Of a DNA stretch of 64,000 nt, positions 13,634-25,548 are shown piece after piece (within the stretch, counting starts at the first letter, position 1; each line of letters opens with the position of its first letter). Origin of the DNA: Candidatus Bathyarchaeota archaeon (lineage in GTDB: Archaea > Thermoproteota > Bathyarchaeia > Bathyarchaeales > Bathycorpusculaceae); assembly GCA_963717465.1 (NCBI GenBank), contig OY970340.1, positions 2,816,001 to 2,880,000 of the forward strand, given 5' to 3'. A program made the position numbers and the translations under genes. The notes beneath the pieces are model-generated. The model ran no database searches. It saw nothing but the letters and a program-made list of their open reading frames with translations, and had not been told where the DNA came from.

Positions 13634-13725
13634 TGGCGGCTCCCAAGGGGAATCGAACCCCGAGACCTTACCAGACTCATCGGATTTGAAGTCCGATGCC
13701 AGGACCACCTTAGCTGTAGGAAGCC
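13634..13725 (-). tRNA. selC: tRNA-Sec (anticodon UCA)
   Basis: 92 nt; 9-bp acceptor (one U-U), 4-bp T-stem GGGG/CCCC with TTCGATT loop, long D-stem with 4-nt loop, 6-bp anticodon stem ATCGGA/TCCGAT, loop CTTCAAA, long variable arm, discriminator G, encoded CCA. Confidence 0.93.
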
Positions 13726-18787: not shown

Positions 18788-19918
18788 TCAAGGGATTATT
18801 TCGCACCCGTTATACTTGATGTAATTAAAATCGCTTAAACTGACTTTGCCTTTTCTTATCAAATTCTTGATCCGTGGAATTTGTTCTGTCACGTCATCTA
18901 CGAGAGATTTAACCGTGCAACAGACGTCCGAGTATGCTTTGTTGTCCCATCTTTGCGTTAGATTTGTGTATAGGCATCTGCCGCCGCAGACGTTAAGAAT
19001 TGCGCATTTACTGCATGGAGGCTGATTAACAAACACTTTCTTTAGCTTAAGCGGATCAGCGTTGCCTATGTGACCTAAATAATGGTCTTTCATCCCCCAC
19101 ATTGTTGGACAAGCAATAATGTAACCGTCTGTTTGAATAGCATAGTTTATCCAGCCGCCGCCACAACGTAACAAGCATTCTTTTTCATCGTTTAAAAGCG
19201 AGTTCGCAATGCCAAGTATGGGGTAAAGCTTCAACACAACGCCTTTCTGCTCTATCATGTCCACCCAGAAACCAACGAGCTTTTTTACTCCCGGCATGTA
19301 GCTTTTCTCTGTCCAATCCTTAAAATTTCGTTTTGCGTAATCGTTTGACCAAAAACCTGCGTTCAGCTGCCAATGAACCGAGGAAAACTTGAACTCCTCA
19401 TTCTCAAACAGCCATCTGATTTGCGTGTGGATGTCTGTTTGCTCCATCACAGTCATTCGTGCAATCAATTCACCCATAAAACCATTCTTTCTAACCAGCT
19501 TCAGGTTATCGATGACTTTGCGAAAAGTGCCCTTACCTCGGTAATAATCCGTTAAAGCCTCATCACCGTCGATGGAGACAAGCATAGTGTGGAAGCGGTC
19601 TACATACTCTGGCTCCAACTTGTCAAGCAGCAAACCGTTAGTTTGAATCATAAAATGCTTAGGCTTAACACAATCCATAATCCGCTTAATCTCAGAAATG
19701 CACATTAAGGGTTCGCCGCCGTAAAAAGTCACCACGCAATCTGGGTCCCTGCGGCAGAAATTCGCGAGCAAATCTAAATCATAATTGATCTTTTTAGGTA
19801 AAGAGTAATCTACTTCAATTTGGTCGCCAAAATCCTCGTCAAAATCATCAAGGCTCTCGCCAAAACAGTACCTACACTGCAAATTGCACTGCGACGTCAG
19901 GATCACATGAAAGAACAT
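18788..19918 (-). CDS. Radical SAM/SPASM-domain protein (TIGR04084-like)
   Basis: CNLQCRYC, YGGEPL, SPASM cysteines CSKC..LNVCGGRC, C-terminal GCEIIP. Confidence 0.9.
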   Translation of the reverse strand: MFFHVILTSQCNLQCRYCFGESLDDFDEDFGDQIEVDYSLPKKINYDLDLLANFCRRDPDCVVTFYGGEPLMCISEIKRIMDCVKPKHFMIQTNGLLLDKLEPEYVDRFHTMLVSIDGDEALTDYYRGKGTFRKVIDNLKLVRKNGFMGELIARMTVMEQTDIHTQIRWLFENEEFKFSSVHWQLNAGFWSNDYAKRNFKDWTEKSYMPGVKKLVGFWVDMIEQKGVVLKLYPILGIANSLLNDEKECLLRCGGGWINYAIQTDGYIIACPTMWGMKDHYLGHIGNADPLKLKKVFVNQPPCSKCAILNVCGGRCLYTNLTQRWDNKAYSDVCCTVKSLVDDVTEQIPRIKNLIRKGKVSLSDFNYIKYNGCEIIP

Positions 19919-19942
19919 GCGTAAAATGTACATAATGCTTGT

Positions 19943-21314
19943 TTAATAGTATTTTTCCGCCAACTCCTGCGCTTCAACAAACTCTTCCTGATCTTGTTCG
20001 TTTTCTCCGTCTTGTTCTTTCTCTTTTTTCTTCGTTTTGTTCTTTGGTTTCTTCTTGTGTTTCCTTTGTCTCTTTTTTCTGGTTTTTCTCGTATTCTTTT
20101 TGCACAATTTTTTGTGCTTTTTCAAGGTAACTTTTCAAGTCTCTATCCTTCATAGCTTTCTCAGGCAAAGTTTCAGGAGCAACAAAAAGAGGCAAAACAG
20201 CAACAAACAAGAAGAAGACTGTGAAAGAGAAAAGCGCAGAAGTCGAAATCAAGTTTGTCAAATAGTTATTTGCTAAAACTTCTAAGAATTGTGAGACAAA
20301 AAAAGGGGTTACACCAAGAGCATAGAATTTATTGCTTTGATAGTTACCGCTTAAATCTCCCCAGATTGTTAAAATGAAAATTGTGTAGAAAAATCCCCAA
20401 GCGATGGCGGTTGCGATAACAGATAAGTACACAGCTATGGGAGTTGAAGGGAAAGCTGCTAAAATCGCTGTTCCGATTCCAATTGATACGAACCCAGCGA
20501 GGGCGATTTTCCTACGTCCCATAAAATCAATCAGAAACCCTCCAATAATTGAACATATTCCCATCAGTATATTCTGGATCAGAATAAGTTGCGTTACAGC
20601 CTGTTGTCCCCCTAGTAAGCTTGATTGAATCGGCGGAGTCAAATAATTCGCAAAACAAAACATAACCCACGGAATAAAGTACAATATAAAAGATCTTTCT
20701 TTCAGAATAGCTTTGTAAGATGTTAAGGATTCTTTGTGTATCTCTACTTTTTTTTGGGATTGACTGACATTAAAAACAAAGAGACTCGATAATCTAAATG
20801 CTGCAAGAATGATACCGACTACAAAGGCGTCATACGGAACAAGGAGCATCAAAGCAAATCCAATTGTGAAAAATAAAAAAATACATCCGCTTACTCTTCC
20901 TCGTTTTTCAATCGGTATAGAATTAGTAAAATACCCCATGCATGCTGGCATTCCAACACCCAATGAAATGCCCAAAAACAGCGAAATCAGACTTAATATG
21001 AATAAGTTACCGCTATAAATAAAAAAAATTGATAAAGATGACGCAACTCCCAATAACATCCAGATTGATAAAAATCTATTTTGGTCAATTCTTTTAAAGA
21101 ACACAGCTCCAACTATTGCTGAAATTATTATTCCCAAAAAATGAACCCCCCAAATAATTATCGCTATGTTGGGGTCTTGTGACATTTTAGCTATGGCTTC
21201 TTGCAACATTACATTTACTGTATAATACCAAATAAGCGGATTAGCCACTACAAAAATGACTGCTAAAGTGGATTTTACCCTAACTTCTGGATTAAATAGC
21301 CATTTTTTAAGCAT
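19943..21314 (-). CDS. MFS transporter; tail frameshifted in the A-run near 20026
   Basis: About 12 TM segments, GFLIDFMGRR motif A, APETLPEK; the alternative frame ends EAQELAEKYY. Confidence 0.88.
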
Positions 21315-21502
21315 GCGTTCAAAAATTAATAAGAAGAAATCAAGAAATAAGGATTGATAATTCTAAAACAGTATTCAAAATAAGCGTTTTTGGCGGGAGC
21401 TGCCCTTTTAGGGCGTAATACTTATAAGGCAGTTAAGCGCTCAATCGGAAGTTTTTTAAAGCAGTTGTGTCGAACATATATACATAAAGGAGAAGGTCAA
21501 AA

Positions 21503-21547
21503 ATGAAATATAATAAACCAGTTAGAATAGCAGGCGGATGGGCATAA
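21503..21547 (+). CDS. 14-aa micro-ORF MKYNKPVRIAGGWA, candidate modified-peptide precursor
   Basis: Strong RBS AAGGAGAAGGT, upstream TTTTAAA, ATG...TAA, followed by an inverted repeat. Confidence 0.6.
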   Translation: MKYNKPVRIAGGWA

Positions 21548-21549
21548 AT

Positions 21550-21579
21550 AAACAAGATTTTTATGAATAGTTCTTGTTT
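21550..21579. terminator. Inverted repeat between the convergent micro-ORF and prenyltransferase gene
   Basis: AAACAAGA...TCTTGTTT flanked by A/T runs. Confidence 0.5.
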
Positions 21580-21583
21580 TATT

Positions 21584-22564
21584 TTACAACCCTTCTGAAA
21601 CCCCACATATTATTTGATTTAATAAATCTTGCTTATACTTTAAGTTATTTATTGAAAGGAGTTCCTGTAAAGTAAATTCTCTGATTTTCTGCTTCAGCAT
21701 TAAAGTTTCCGTTGAATTCAAAACATCATCAAGTATTTTCTCTATTATTTTTTCATTTAACTTCCTTTTAAGCAAACGAATAATTTCTTCTTTTCTATCG
21801 ACACTTGCAAACGTAAGCAATATGGGCAAAGGAAGGTATTCTTTTTCAAACCTGTTCTTAAGCTCGTCTGGTTCAAACATGTCAACAAACTCATCGCGCA
21901 AAGTCATAAGAACCCCGAATGTTTTTGCATAATGTCCTAAAATCTCAACCTCTTTTTTAGTGCCATTGCCTAAAATTGCTCCTATTTTTGCTGAAGCTTC
22001 GCCTGCAGCGACTTTATTGTTTACAAGCTCAAAATACTCTTTCTCTGAAATGTCAAATCTTCCTCGAAACTCTCTTTCCTGCGCTTCCGCACTGCTAACT
22101 TCCAAAAAAGCCTGTTCAACTATTTTTAGGATTTCATGGCGTTTGCTCTCAACAAGTTTTTGGCAAGCATCATGTAAAACATAAGCACCTTTTTGAAGTA
22201 AAACATCACCTGCAAGTACAGCTATGTCGACACCATATTTTCCATAAACAGTTGGTTTTGAAGACTTGGTTTTTGACTGGTCAATAATGTCGTCATGTAC
22301 ATCCGCGGCTCCCGCAAGAAGCACTAAAGCAGCGCTAAGCTCAGTTGCGATATCTGGGTTTCCGCCTACAGCCTCGCAGGCAAGAGCAACTAAAGCAGGA
22401 TGCAAAACATCTTCCCAATTATCCATAAAGTATTCAAGTGCTTCTTTAAGAGGCTTAAACCCCACTTTTTCTTGCCTTACGATTTGTCTAGCAAGGTCTA
22501 AGGATTTTTGTCCTTTTTTGTAAAATAACCTGATAACGTCTTCCATCTTTGCCTCTTCAGCCAT
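21584..22564 (-). CDS. Polyprenyl synthetase-family protein with degenerate motifs
   Basis: First motif HDDIID intact, but no RRG after it (QSKTKSSKPT); second motif reads RDEFVD. Confidence 0.85.
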   Translation of the reverse strand: MAEEAKMEDVIRLFYKKGQKSLDLARQIVRQEKVGFKPLKEALEYFMDNWEDVLHPALVALACEAVGGNPDIATELSAALVLLAGAADVHDDIIDQSKTKSSKPTVYGKYGVDIAVLAGDVLLQKGAYVLHDACQKLVESKRHEILKIVEQAFLEVSSAEAQEREFRGRFDISEKEYFELVNNKVAAGEASAKIGAILGNGTKKEVEILGHYAKTFGVLMTLRDEFVDMFEPDELKNRFEKEYLPLPILLTFASVDRKEEIIRLLKRKLNEKIIEKILDDVLNSTETLMLKQKIREFTLQELLSINNLKYKQDLLNQIICGVSEGL

Positions 22565-22665
22565 AATATTACAAGTCCTTACCATCATGTTGACTTTTAG
22601 GGTTTAAATATTCTCACATACTAAGCAAAACTCTTAATAGGTTTAGACTTAATCAGTCAAGTTTT

Positions 22666-25548
22666 ATGAGCCTGACTAAGCAAATCGAAGAGAAATGGCA
22701 AGCCAAATGGGAAATCTCACGCGTTTTCGAAGCTGATCCAGATCCTACACGTCAAAAAATTATGGTTACTTTTCCATATCCGTACATGAATGGCCCTTTG
22801 CATGTGGGACATACGTTTACTGCTTCCCGTGTTGACGCTTATGCCCGATTCAAGCGGATGCAGGGCTACAATGTGCTTTGGCCGTGGGGTTGGCATTGGA
22901 CTGGTCAACCGCTACTGGGCGCTAGTCAACGCGTAGCGCGAAATGATGAAGTGTACATACGTGTTTTACGCGAAGTTGATGGGGTGCCAGATGCTGAACT
23001 TAAGAAATTTGTTGACCCGCTTTACATGGCTCAGTACTACACCAACGAAGGAAGGTTGGCAGCTAAACGCATTGGTTTCTCTGTTGATTGGCGCAGGGAA
23101 TTCACTACTATTTTGCCGACTTATCAGAAATTTATTGAGTGGCAGTACAAGAACCTACAAGAGAAAGGCTATGTAACCCGTGGAACTCATCCGGTGGTGT
23201 GGTGTCCTAAAGATCAAAGTCCGACTGGCGACCATGATCGTCAAGTAGGCGAAGGCGTAACGCCTGAAGAGTACACGCTAATAAAGTACAGGCTTGATGA
23301 AAACACTATTTTGCCAGCGGCAACTTTTCGGCCTGAAACAGTCTATGGCATAACAAACATTTGGGTTAACCCTGATGCAACTTACGTTGAAGCACAAGTC
23401 AACAAGGAAAACTGGATTATAAGCCAAGAAGCTTCTGAAAAACTTAAAGAACAACAAAAAACCGTTCAAGTAAAACGCACTTTCAAGGGTCGGGAATTAA
23501 TCGGGAAAACCTTTGAAAACCCCGTAACAAAAAAGGAATTTCCGATCTTACCCGGATGGTTCGTTGATCCAAAGCAAGCTACGGGCATTGTCTACAGTGT
23601 TCCAGCTCATGCACCCTACGATTGGCTGGCACTAAAAGACCTAAAAGAGAAACCGGAAGTCTTGAAAGATTTTGGTGTTGACCCAGAAGTCGTTAAGAAA
23701 ATTAATCCGATCTCAATCATTAAAGTTGAAGGGTTCGGCGAGTTTCCAGCTGTGGAAATTGTGCAGCAGATGGGAATAAAAGACCAGCACGACCCAAGGG
23801 CTGACCAAGCAACTAAAGAGCTGTATAAAAAAGAGTTTCACGGTGGGAAACTTAAGCAGAATTGCGGTGTCTATGCTGGGAAAAGTGTTCGCGAAGTCAA
23901 GGATACGCTTATTGGTGATTTTCGCAAACTGGGCGTTGCTGACAGCATGTACGATTTGCCTGAACCAGTGATTTGCCGTTGCATGACCCAATGCATAGTT
24001 AAAATCTTGTCTAACCAGTGGTTCCTCAATTATTCTGATCCCCAATGGAAAGCGAAAGCAAAAGAAGTTGTCGCCCAAATGACTGTTTATCCTGACTCGG
24101 CTAAACCATGGTTTAACACGGTAATTGATTGGTTAAGAGAGTGGGCATGTGCGAGGACAACTGGTTTTGGCACGCCTTTGCCGTGGGAGAAAGGCTGGAT
24201 AATTGAAACCTTAAGTGATTCAACGGTTTACATGGCGTTTTACACGATAAACAAGCTTATCAAGCAGCATAACGTTAAGCCTGAAGCGTTAACTCCTGAA
24301 GTTTTCGACTACGTTTTCTACGATAAAGGCGAGGCAGCAAAACTTGAGGCTAAGACAGGTTTAAAAGTTGAAATTTTAAACGCAATGCAGAGCGAGTTCA
24401 AGTACTGGTACCCGTTTGACCTTCGAGTTTCAGCAAAGGAACTTGTTCCAAACCACCTGAGCTTCTGCATCTTCCACCACGCAGCCCTGTTTCCACAAAA
24501 TTATTGGCCAAGAGGCATTGGCGTCAATGGCATGCTTATGGTTGAAGGCAAACAAATGCATAAATCAAAAGGCAACTTCGTGACAATGAAGGGGGCAGTA
24601 GACAAGTACGGAGCAGACGCAACAAGATGCGCGCTTCTATTGGGCGCTGAAGGCATGGATGACCCGGACTGGCGAAGCGAAAGTGCCGCTGACATTCAGG
24701 GTAAAATTGAATCATTCTATAATTTTGCATTAAGCATAATTGAAAAAACTAAATGCGATGATTTTGGGCATTTAGAAAAATGGTTACTCAGCAGGCTTCA
24801 ACACCGTATAAGCGAAGTCACAAAAGGTCTTGACGAGTTAAAAACTAGAACTGCTTTGGAAGTAGCATTCTTTGAAACCTGGAATGATTTTCGCTGGTAC
24901 ACACGCAGAAAAGGAAGAACTGACACTAAAGCAGTTCAAGAAGCATTGGAAATTTGGGTTAGACTAGTCGCACCTTTTGCGCCTCATATAAGCGAAGAAT
25001 TATGGAGCAAAGCTGGAAAAGACGATTTCATAAGCAGAGCAGCTTGGCCAACAGTTGACGAAAATAAACTGGATTGGTCTGCTGAAGAAGAAGAGAATTT
25101 TCTAATTGACCTAATCGAGGACACTCTGAACGTTTTAAAAGCCACCAAGATAACTCCTAAAAAAATATGCTATTACACTGCTGCAGCGTGGAAAACAAAA
25201 ATTTACACCATCATCCTTGAAAAATCCCTCGAAGGAGAAGCAAAAATCAACGATGTCATGAAAAACGCTTCAAATGAACCTGAATTAAAACAGTATATGA
25301 AGCAAATTGCGGCTTTAGTTCCTAAAATACTTAAAACAATAAGTAAGCTGCCGACTGAAAGAAAAAAACGTTTAGCAAAAACTTACGTTCGCGATGAGAA
25401 AGAAGCAATTTCAGCTAGTCTGGATTTTCTAAAGACACGGTTTGAAGCGGACGTCGCAGTTTATAGTGAGGAAGATGCGACGCGTTATGATCCTCGGCAA
25501 CGAGCAACGATGGCTGTGCCAAGACAACCTGCGATATTCATAGAATAA
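22666..25548 (+). CDS. leuS: Leucyl-tRNA synthetase (archaeal type)
   Basis: FPYPYMNGPLHVGH, ATFRPET, QMHKSKGN. Confidence 0.97.
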   Translation: MSLTKQIEEKWQAKWEISRVFEADPDPTRQKIMVTFPYPYMNGPLHVGHTFTASRVDAYARFKRMQGYNVLWPWGWHWTGQPLLGASQRVARNDEVYIRVLREVDGVPDAELKKFVDPLYMAQYYTNEGRLAAKRIGFSVDWRREFTTILPTYQKFIEWQYKNLQEKGYVTRGTHPVVWCPKDQSPTGDHDRQVGEGVTPEEYTLIKYRLDENTILPAATFRPETVYGITNIWVNPDATYVEAQVNKENWIISQEASEKLKEQQKTVQVKRTFKGRELIGKTFENPVTKKEFPILPGWFVDPKQATGIVYSVPAHAPYDWLALKDLKEKPEVLKDFGVDPEVVKKINPISIIKVEGFGEFPAVEIVQQMGIKDQHDPRADQATKELYKKEFHGGKLKQNCGVYAGKSVREVKDTLIGDFRKLGVADSMYDLPEPVICRCMTQCIVKILSNQWFLNYSDPQWKAKAKEVVAQMTVYPDSAKPWFNTVIDWLREWACARTTGFGTPLPWEKGWIIETLSDSTVYMAFYTINKLIKQHNVKPEALTPEVFDYVFYDKGEAAKLEAKTGLKVEILNAMQSEFKYWYPFDLRVSAKELVPNHLSFCIFHHAALFPQNYWPRGIGVNGMLMVEGKQMHKSKGNFVTMKGAVDKYGADATRCALLLGAEGMDDPDWRSESAADIQGKIESFYNFALSIIEKTKCDDFGHLEKWLLSRLQHRISEVTKGLDELKTRTALEVAFFETWNDFRWYTRRKGRTDTKAVQEALEIWVRLVAPFAPHISEELWSKAGKDDFISRAAWPTVDENKLDWSAEEEENFLIDLIEDTLNVLKATKITPKKICYYTAAAWKTKIYTIILEKSLEGEAKINDVMKNASNEPELKQYMKQIAALVPKILKTISKLPTERKKRLAKTYVRDEKEAISASLDFLKTRFEADVAVYSEEDATRYDPRQRATMAVPRQPAIFIE

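Follow-up and report, generated by a model that had tools for sequence, protein, structure and literature searches.

A micro-ORF between a polyprenyl-synthase homologue and a transporter gene

The window analysed here, a stretch of 64,000 nucleotides from the genome of a Candidatus Bathyarchaeota archaeon (contig OY970340.1, positions 2,816,001 to 2,880,000), holds a 14-codon open reading frame (ORF), termed micro-ORF, on the plus strand of the 269-nt gap between the gene of a polyprenyl-synthase homologue, PTS, and that of a major facilitator superfamily (MFS) transporter. Its orientation is convergent relative to PTS and divergent relative to the MFS gene (Table 1). An initial annotation, made from the letters alone, had described this orientation, together with a ribosome-binding site, a TATA-like box and a downstream hairpin, and had read the locus as a prenylated-peptide system comparable to ComX and ComQ of Bacillus. 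The orientation was borne out, and every one of the elements is present. The encoded peptide starts with MKYNKPVR, ends in GGWA and has only three Lys or Arg residues.

The hairpin is built from a perfect 8-bp inverted repeat (21550-21557/21572-21579) with an extension (21546-21552/21578-21584), and its minimum free energy of -10.9 kcal/mol compares with -5.06 +/- 2.14 for shuffled sequences (z = -2.73). It is not general in the family described below, where the stops of PTS and micro-ORF lie at most 10 nt apart in 45 of 91 loci and overlap in 15.

Table 1. Features of the window at and around the micro-ORF (positions are those of the window).
Feature	Position	Strand	Description
Radical SAM/SPASM protein	18788-19933	-	TIGR04084, 307 bits (cut-off 225); 40-nt gap to MFS gene
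MFS transporter	19974-21314	-	446 aa; PF07690, 62 bits
TATA-like box	21452-21461	+	TTTTTTAAAG; micro-ORF promoter
TGT-N3-ACA box	21468-21476		TGTCGAACA; operator-like; between TATA box and likely transcript start
ATACA	21480-21484	+	Conserved; about 25 nt downstream of TATA box; predicted transcript start region
Shine-Dalgarno-like GGAG	21489-21492	+	10 nt upstream of micro-ORF ATG
Micro-ORF	21503-21547	+	14 codons; ATG 21503, TAA 21545-21547; product MKYNKPVRIAGGWA
Hairpin	21546-21584		Candidate two-way terminator between the convergent stops of micro-ORF and PTS
PTS (polyprenyl-synthase homologue)	21584-22564	-	326 aa (334 aa from the upstream ATG at 22588); PF00348, 88.8 bits
Leucyl-tRNA synthetase (LeuRS)	22666-25548		Divergent from PTS

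Conservation of the micro-ORF

The relatives of this locus indicate that the micro-ORF is very probably a genuine gene with a function, linked to PTS and MFS. Related genomes were searched in two ways, namely, a set of 41, of which 29 have PTS homologues, and a pattern scan of one genome per species, which yielded 222 relatives and from which the best 80 loci were used; 74 of these 80 are titled Candidatus Bathyarchaeota or Bathyarchaeia. Individual loci are referred to by L-numbers. Together they yielded 103 non-identical PTS units, three of which are distant outgroups with long branches (26-29% identity), leaving 100 family units. An MFS gene lies within 600 nt downstream of PTS in 91 units, whether counted among the 103 or the 100. 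First, 89 of these 91 PTS-then-MFS units have a micro-ORF of 12-20 codons (median 15) on the opposite strand, beside the PTS stop. Second, a micro-ORF is found in all seven other family units with a displaced or divergent MFS gene (L039, L092, L019, L100, L111, L072 and L073), and it is kept in L039 and L092 despite displacement of the MFS gene. In total, 96 of the 100 family units have a micro-ORF of 12-21 codons between PTS and MFS, as called by a scoring heuristic and inspection after the first loci had been seen.

We also give counts from a fixed rule, itself written after the first loci, by which an ORF must have [PVIA]xR among its final 12 residues, W among its final five and at least three K/R. 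The rule was passed on the opposite strand by the PTS stop in 58 of 91 loci and on the gene strand in none of 91; 200 shuffles gave a mean of 1.05 and a maximum of 4 of 91, and MFS-proximal positions gave 0 of 39. With a Shine-Dalgarno (SD) sequence as an additional requirement, ORFs that pass occur at 2.64 per kb on the opposite strand of the gaps, at zero on the gene strand and at 0.066 per kb elsewhere in the same loci. Among 15 independent pairs, differences at codon positions 1, 2 and 3 number 50, 32 and 76, and synonymous and non-synonymous differences 53 and 58; both counts are biased by the selection of pairs with at least 60% peptide identity.

Signals for translation initiation recur as well. 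The start codons as first called are ATG in 68 micro-ORFs, TTG in 10 and GTG in 6, and 68 of these 84 have an SD-like 4-mer at -4 to -16. The micro-ORF of L025 also starts with TTG. Seven loci without a canonical start (L009, L010, L011, L066, L045, L069 and L081) have ACG at the homologous position, 5-8 nt downstream of a GGAGGAAAGGA-type SD, which suggests a conserved near-cognate ACG initiation codon in these seven micro-ORFs.

Duplications of the module show the micro-ORF in different states. Tandem arrangements of the form PTS-MFS-PTS-MFS-radical SAM occur in L046 and L069, and PTS-MFS-MFS in L059. In the second unit of L046 an early stop and a shift of frame disrupt the micro-ORF, and the second unit of L069 has none. 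The gap of L051 has two different micro-ORF copies, MKREKPIRPIRKYWT and MKRTKPIRPIRMYWA. In the genome of the window no second copy was found, using a peptide pattern that would miss the window peptide with its three K/R. A 35-residue ORF was recorded in L013, the first 20 residues of which are probably not native.

Three gene orders and a rapidly diversifying module

The micro-ORF follows PTS and MFS through three arrangements. In order A, the main one, PTS is forward, the micro-ORF reverse and MFS forward. In order B, seen in a clade of six loci, MFS and micro-ORF are both reverse and PTS is forward; the ORFs of this clade have 20-21 codons, read M(T/S)KKQN(I/V)R(A/V)KPNPTSVGMWW or MAKRAVRAKGGV(Q/D)PTVV(S/R)VWW, and lie downstream of GGAGGTGA. 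In order C (L149 and L152), micro-ORF, PTS and MFS are co-directional, all forward, and the peptide is MNQKRAIKAKAP(A/V)NWGGW. Among eight further PTS-like matches from relatives, five are in the family, namely, two of order C, one of order A, with the Trp-less peptide MKATKEVRKKPVRFSI, and two orphans. No orientation-dependent cis mechanism fits three gene orders, and the peptide itself is therefore the likely actor.

An MFS gene was matched in 76 of the 80 loci. Median identities to the window proteins are 43% for PTS and 37% for MFS, well under those of the radical SAM protein (69%) and LeuRS (72%), which means that the module diversifies much faster than its flanking genes.

The PTS enzyme

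The genome of the window, which is a single contig of 3.05 Mb, matches PF00348 seven times, at six places, and most weakly in PTS. The four paralogues that we aligned have a GGKRxRP-type motif, a DDxxD followed by RRG (RRD in one) and a second motif that reads FQxxDDxxD in three and YQLADDSKD in the fourth. PTS departs from this pattern at each site. First, GGKRxRP is replaced by WxDxxHP in the family, WEDVLHP in the window. Second, the region of DDxxD and RRG reads DDIIDxSxxK-x-x-KPT, the window protein having DDIID and K-S-S in place of RRG. Third, FQxxDDxxD corresponds to a variable [IL]R[DE][DE]Fx[DN], MTLRDEFVD in the window, and the variants across Bathyarchaeia are of the form [RK][DESA][ED]Fx[DN], not ND. 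The initial annotation had been right that the homologue keeps the first DDxxD (DDIID), lacks RRG (K-S-S) and has an altered second motif (RDEFVD).

What is retained is strictly retained: D91, D92 and D95 of FARM (first Asp-rich motif), K100 and T105 are invariant in 98 PTS sequences, and K184 is nearly so. In structures of farnesyl and geranylgeranyl diphosphate synthases (FPPS and GGPPS), the residues retained in PTS bind the allylic diphosphate and those lost bind isopentenyl diphosphate (IPP). PTS would thus have kept its donor site and lost its IPP site. Among NCBIfam models its best scores fall far below the cut-offs, with 126 bits for IdsA (cut-off 468) and 114 bits for GGPP_syn (cut-off 500). 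Given the loss of GKRxR and RRG, the degenerate second Asp motif, these low scores and the presence of canonical paralogues, PTS appears unlike an ordinary chain-elongating GGPP synthase, in agreement with what had been predicted for it.

Its ancestry is nonetheless that of such enzymes. The AlphaFold2 model of PTS (pLDDT 95.1) has the all-alpha fold of trans-isoprenyl diphosphate synthases (IPPS), and its best structural match is a GGPPS (1wy0, TM 0.85), the tryptophan-prenylating enzyme Ord1 (9v4h, TM 0.75) ranking 12th by Foldseek. Searched against PDB sequences, the family profile again matches 1wy0 (1.2e-38), with Ord1 sixth (5.5e-29), the best matches being GGPPS and long-chain synthases. 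No ComQ model is among the 16 NCBIfam matches of PTS. As judged from these profiles and motifs, PTS is a descendant of archaeal GGPPS, not of the ComQ family.

Elsewhere in the same genome, at 341892-342615, two PF00348 matches lie side by side in separate open frames, one spanning profile positions 2-129 and the other 130-233, which looks like a split or frameshifted copy of a canonical GGPPS-like paralogue.

Peptide features

The 89 peptides of arrangement A are short and strongly cationic, with 37% K+R, 9.1% Trp and a mean of 0.3 acidic residues per peptide. A polybasic N-terminus usually leads to P-[IV]-R, and P-x-R occurs in 71 of the 89. The last Trp is C-terminal in 25 peptides, second-last in 48, third-last in two, fourth-last in four and absent from 10; it is thus last or second-last in 73, and 34 have at least two W. 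The near-invariant basic residue after P-[IV] may, speculatively, be a recognition or cleavage site between a polybasic head and a variable tail of 3-8 residues.

Short ORFs at homologous loci with a conserved YxKP and a near-terminal W had been expected from the initial annotation. The ORFs and the near-terminal W are found as described, and the YxKP is not: Tyr stands at position 3 in only 2 of the 89 Bathyarchaeia peptides, by inspection. The accompanying argument, which drew on YxxP in the leaders of lasso peptides, fails with it, YxxP not being conserved in the peptides of Bathyarchaeia.

In the PTS tree, peptide types track enzyme clades, with Trp lost on at least three occasions. Alignment column 140 (L122 of the window PTS, in GDVLL) has Leu in 80 of 87 rows with a Trp peptide and Phe or Cys in 11 of 11 rows with a Trp-less one. 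This signal is confounded by descent, since the clade in question also includes Trp peptides whose enzyme has Phe, and column 140 is at most a weak lead to a possible acceptor-pocket residue.

Promoter boxes and PadR-family genes

The micro-ORFs appear to have a promoter of their own. Among the 84 with a called start, a TATA-like word lies upstream of 75, at a median of 45 nt from the start, and a TGT-N3-ACA-like box is present in 78. The upstream regions share the consensus ...TTTtaaG.atAt.TGT.gAACA.a.ATACAg (73 of 84 anchored regions), in which ATACA is likely the region of the transcript start. The 91 PTS-MFS gaps contain 113 TGT-N3-ACA boxes, where about 8 are expected, and 82 gaps have at least one. 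In the genome of the window this promoter architecture occurs at two sites only, one being the window locus. A sigma-70 and terminator scan of the window, which is unsuited to archaeal promoters, gave nothing useful.

PadR-family genes precede PTS in 41 of 80 loci. Typically, one of them immediately precedes PTS in the same direction and another is divergent (for example, L091 5101-5937), and the TGT-N3-ACA box is found in 24 of 33 PadR/PadR intergenic regions, against about 3 expected. The box is thus probably the site of a PadR-type repressor. No PadR gene adjoins the module of the window, and 11 are found elsewhere in the same genome.

The module beyond Bathyarchaeia

At E <= 1e-55, the PTS family profile matches 42 of 301 sampled Thermoproteota genomes, including families outside Bathyarchaeia, in one of which 16 of 25 genomes have a match. 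In the 12 non-Bathyarchaeia loci examined, PTS has lost GKRxR and retained the second DDxxD, and a weak MFS homologue lies downstream in seven. Micro-ORFs are found in this second lineage too, on the opposite strand by the PTS stop, namely, MKKYNPTPIRLWAPLP, MKKYNPTPIRIWVPPLP and MKKYNPTPVRFWVPPP. Upstream of MKKYNPTPVRFWVPPP are TGTAGAACA and ATACAG, and in L160, L164 and L167 the linkage recurs with the same promoter box as in Bathyarchaeia. A search for AmoA, meant to place this lineage, matched neither it nor the control genomes, and a protein atlas gave polyprenyl-synthetase clusters of Bathyarchaeota only. KYNP recurs among the second-lineage peptides, and their resemblance to MKYNKPVR...W of the window is plain from the sequences. 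Locus L157 (3448-3580, minus strand) carries the micro-ORF MKSYNPTPVRLWVPG twice in tandem, in identical form and with an SD for each; such repetition is a typical trait of precursor genes.

A 319-aa ORF upstream of PTS in L167 proved unrelated to PTS (hhalign probability 0.07%).

Comparison with known peptide prenyltransferases

The analogy with ComQ and ComX is reasonable. The ComX precursor has about 55 residues, unlike the micro-ORF peptides with their 12-21 residues and no long leader; nor is there a ComP/ComA two-component pair, PadR and MFS being found here instead. PTS has no specific kinship to the ComQ family (IPR033965), as judged by NCBIfam models and PDB sequence profiles, and its pseudo-second motif, [RK][DE][DE]Fx[DN], differs from the NDxxx of ComQ and StheQ. 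The likenesses, as far as the sections of the sources cited here describe the bacterial system, are the trans-IPPS fold with the first DDxxD kept and a non-canonical second motif, and a small neighbouring gene with Trp near the C-terminus, enzyme and peptide diverging fast and in parallel (PMC10853753; bioRxiv 10.64898/2026.08.29.745113). The comparison made in the initial annotation stands as an analogy, for which PalQ and StheQ are closer precedents; as kinship it does not, PTS lying outside the ComQ family by sequence and having no sensor kinase beside it.

In the sections cited here, ComQ, PalQ, StheQ and the P domain of ChrPC are described as members of the IPPS superfamily that prenylate a Trp of a peptide encoded by a neighbouring gene, and all are bacterial (PMC10853753; bioRxiv 10.64898/2026.08.29.745113; PMC13290415). 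The corresponding section of a 2026 review lists bacterial trans-isoprenyl-diphosphate-synthase (IDS)-like peptide prenyltransferases only, with Mg2+ at the first motif alone and Trp as the target of all those characterised (PMC13290415). Our literature search found no archaeal peptide prenylation or peptide pheromone, and none of the peptide words.

PalQ, according to the same review section, requires a C-terminal Trp, prefers GW or GGW and rejects a C-terminal extension (PMC13290415), a preference for Gly before Trp that recalls the GGWA of the window and the GGW of other peptides. The part of the PalQ report drawn on here gives DNVRRFFW as the PalX core peptide (PMC10853753), to which micro-ORF endings such as ...MRIFFW, ...VVRFFWR and ...RLLFW are similar. 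The same part sets PalQ apart in three respects: the leader of PalX is an NHLP domain of about 70 residues, PalQ is linked to a histidine kinase, and, unlike PTS, it retains the aspartates of the second motif (PMC10853753). Moreover, Trp is second-last (48) more often than last (25) in our peptides, unlike in the PalQ substrate.

In this last respect StheQ offers a parallel. Its acceptor, in the sections of the preprint used here, is the Trp second from the C-terminus, it has the same all-alpha IPPS fold, and it binds a single Mg2+ at the first motif, its pseudo-second motif being metal-free (bioRxiv 10.64898/2026.08.29.745113). A Gln or Asn before that motif touches donor and indole in both StheQ and Ord1; unlike the micro-ORF peptides, StheX has 69 residues, and N215 and Q212 of StheQ are without counterpart in PTS (bioRxiv 10.64898/2026.08.29.745113).

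Two further enzymes delimit the comparison. Ord1 (PDB 9v4g-j) is described as an IPPS descendant of the same fold that prenylates an indole instead of IPP; unlike the PTS module, it takes free tryptophan and has no peptide gene, and it is no nearer to PTS than ordinary GGPPS or long-chain synthases are. The GGPP synthase of Pyrococcus horikoshii (1wy0) shares the first DDxxD, K100 and K184 with PTS, which, unlike canonical GGPPS, has lost GKRxR, the second Arg of RRG, the FQ dipeptide and the second DDxxD. The PTS module would match ComQ, PalQ and StheQ in function, by analogy, and not by descent.

Proposed function and alternative explanations

We tentatively favour, at somewhat under an even chance, the reading that PTS prenylates the micro-ORF peptide. 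The micro-ORF would be translated into a leaderless or nearly leaderless precursor with a polybasic N-terminal part, up to P-[IV]-R, and a variable, Trp-ended C-terminal part. PTS would bind an allylic prenyl diphosphate by way of the first DDxxD and Mg2+, IPP no longer being bound, and would move the prenyl group to the peptide, most likely to its terminal or penultimate Trp, as ComQ, PalQ and StheQ do. The MFS protein would export the resulting cationic lipopeptide or confer immunity to it, and the lipopeptide could be a signalling molecule or act on membranes. PadR-type repressors, acting on the TGT-N3-ACA boxes between TATA box and transcript start, would control the peptide gene. What the comparison shows is the gene family, its linkage to PTS and MFS, the lost motifs and the boxes in common; that the peptide is translated, prenylated at the residue named and exported, and that PadR binds the boxes, we infer. 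The fullest version, that is, first archaeal prenylated ribosomal peptides made by an enzyme independently derived from GGPPS, with MFS export, PadR sensing and a species-specific, self-inducing circuit of cell-to-cell signalling (quorum sensing) or antagonism, we regard as doubtful.

Several observations weigh against peptide prenylation. First, 10 of the 89 peptides lack Trp while their PTS retains the invariant DDxxD, and the replacements can be followed within clades, with R-x-W-P becoming R-T-L-P in one and RLYAW becoming RLYAV in another; Trp is therefore not a universal acceptor, or function has shifted in these lineages. Second, the orphan PTS genes of L148 and L150 have neither MFS nor micro-ORF within 1.5 kb, and the peptide gene of order A is not co-transcribed with the enzyme. 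Third, no protease, ABC exporter or sensor kinase is linked to the module, only PTS, MFS, radical SAM and LeuRS recurring among the neighbours in the window. Fourth, on the side of the enzyme, the nearest relatives by sequence and fold are archaeal GGPPS, not ComQ or Ord1, the second DDxxD is intact (RDDxxD) in the PTS relatives outside Bathyarchaeia, and the position one helical turn ahead of the pseudo-second motif, Gln or Asn in StheQ and Ord1, is occupied by Thr or a hydrophobic residue in the PTS family.

Some of these points would be expected if PTS acted on a small molecule, such as free tryptophan, the substrate of Ord1, or an aromatic compound, or were a terpene synthase derived from an IDS, with the MFS protein exporting the product. 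The peptide would then be a separate small protein of the module, perhaps an unmodified cationic membrane peptide anchored by Trp, a factor that modulates MFS, or one that binds or assists PadR. Trp-less peptides alongside an intact PTS and the orphan PTS genes without micro-ORF both fit this explanation, and so does the adjacency of PadR in 41 of 80 loci, the pairing of PadR with an efflux pump being common in stress response and detoxification. Ord1, which is described as farnesylating free Trp, shares the fold. However, a small-molecule substrate leaves unexplained both the tandem micro-ORF copies and why a Trp-ended peptide gene should track PTS through three gene orders and two lineages, and a polybasic chain of 12-20 residues is too short to span a membrane. 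On balance, we consider a small-molecule PTS unlikely.

The micro-ORF might instead act in cis, setting the expression of PTS or MFS as a sensor of Trp codons or of the nascent peptide, like trpL and TnaC, or as a polybasic arrest peptide. Trp codons in last or second-last position, the peptides with two or more W and the polybasic stretch would suit such a role, as would micro-ORF stops that abut or overlap the PTS stop (in the 45 and 15 of 91 loci given above) and, in orders B and C, a position upstream of MFS or PTS on the same strand. Yet no single cis geometry is conserved: unlike the attenuators, the micro-ORF in 89 loci has PTS convergent to it and MFS divergent, and only in B and C is it co-directional. 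It also has its own conserved TATA box, operator and SD, and identical tandem copies are unexpected for a leader. A cis-acting frame is improbable.

A further candidate for the modifying enzyme is the radical SAM/SPASM protein, for which the peptide could be the precursor of a cross-linked peptide made by ribosomes and modified after translation (RiPP), or of a peptide-derived cofactor, of PqqA/PqqE or darobactin type, PTS being auxiliary or unrelated. In 51 of 64 informative loci its gene comes after MFS in the same direction, nine further loci being without a call, its remote matches include peptide maturases such as PapB (103 bits), and the precursor is tiny and has a K-P motif; PqqA also carries a K-P motif. 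Against this, the radical SAM gene is missing in 13 Bathyarchaeia modules with enough flank and in every one of the 12 non-Bathyarchaeia PTS loci, and it evolves slowly (69% identity). The TIGR04084 family is also widespread without the module: 132 of 301 sampled Thermoproteota genomes have it, nearly always in one copy, as does Sulfolobus acidocaldarius. Outside Bathyarchaeia it adjoins LeuRS in 7 of 30 loci that have no PTS and MFS (L118 and L124-L129), and no micro-ORF was found at TIGR04084 loci without PTS and MFS. The radical SAM neighbour is probably a bystander in an old synteny with LeuRS, its participation in the module being possible but unlikely, and the peptide is very improbable as its substrate.

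Finally, that the micro-ORF is untranslated, its conservation reflecting a T-rich PTS terminator (the Lys codons being oligo-T on the PTS strand, a possible archaeal transcription terminator) and the promoter and operator of MFS, is extremely improbable given that 96 of 100 units retain start, SD spacing, frame, P-x-R, terminal Trp and stop despite DNA divergence, that differences are in excess at third positions (in the biased set of pairs), that seven loci share an ACG start behind a perfect SD, and that orders B and C place the micro-ORF away from the 3' end of PTS.

Other features of the locus

Where the radical SAM gene is absent, a ParA/MinD-like ATPase gene (AAA_31) can be found convergent after MFS, as in L091 (8450-10052, minus strand) and L167 (4717-5460, minus strand). 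This placement was seen in basal clades of Bathyarchaeia and in the second lineage, and two small winged-helix genes then follow in Bathyarchaeia. The last 40 or so residues of the MFS protein of the window are rich in K, E and R, and alignments of its relatives stop near residue 402, the tail not being conserved; a K-rich ORF of 60 codons (19943-20125, minus strand) overlaps this tail in another frame and stops at 19943, the left boundary of the initial annotation. Farther away, at 13638-13725 on the minus strand, the window has a tRNA-Sec gene (Rfam RF01852, 61.8 bits; anticodon TCA by ARAGORN).

Implications for Bathyarchaeia

The micro-ORFs form a family of micro-proteins of 12-21 codons that gene callers overlook, kept across most members of a whole class, with the micro-gene present in about a hundred archaeal genomes. 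If PTS does prenylate their products, this would be the first system of ribosomal peptides lipidated by prenylation in archaea, and the PTS enzymes would serve as tools that lipidate peptides at the C-terminus and need no leader. Bathyarchaeia rank with the most abundant archaea of sediments and have barely been cultivated, and a module in which peptide, enzyme and exporter are conserved and under regulation would offer a first way into the study of signalling or competition among them.

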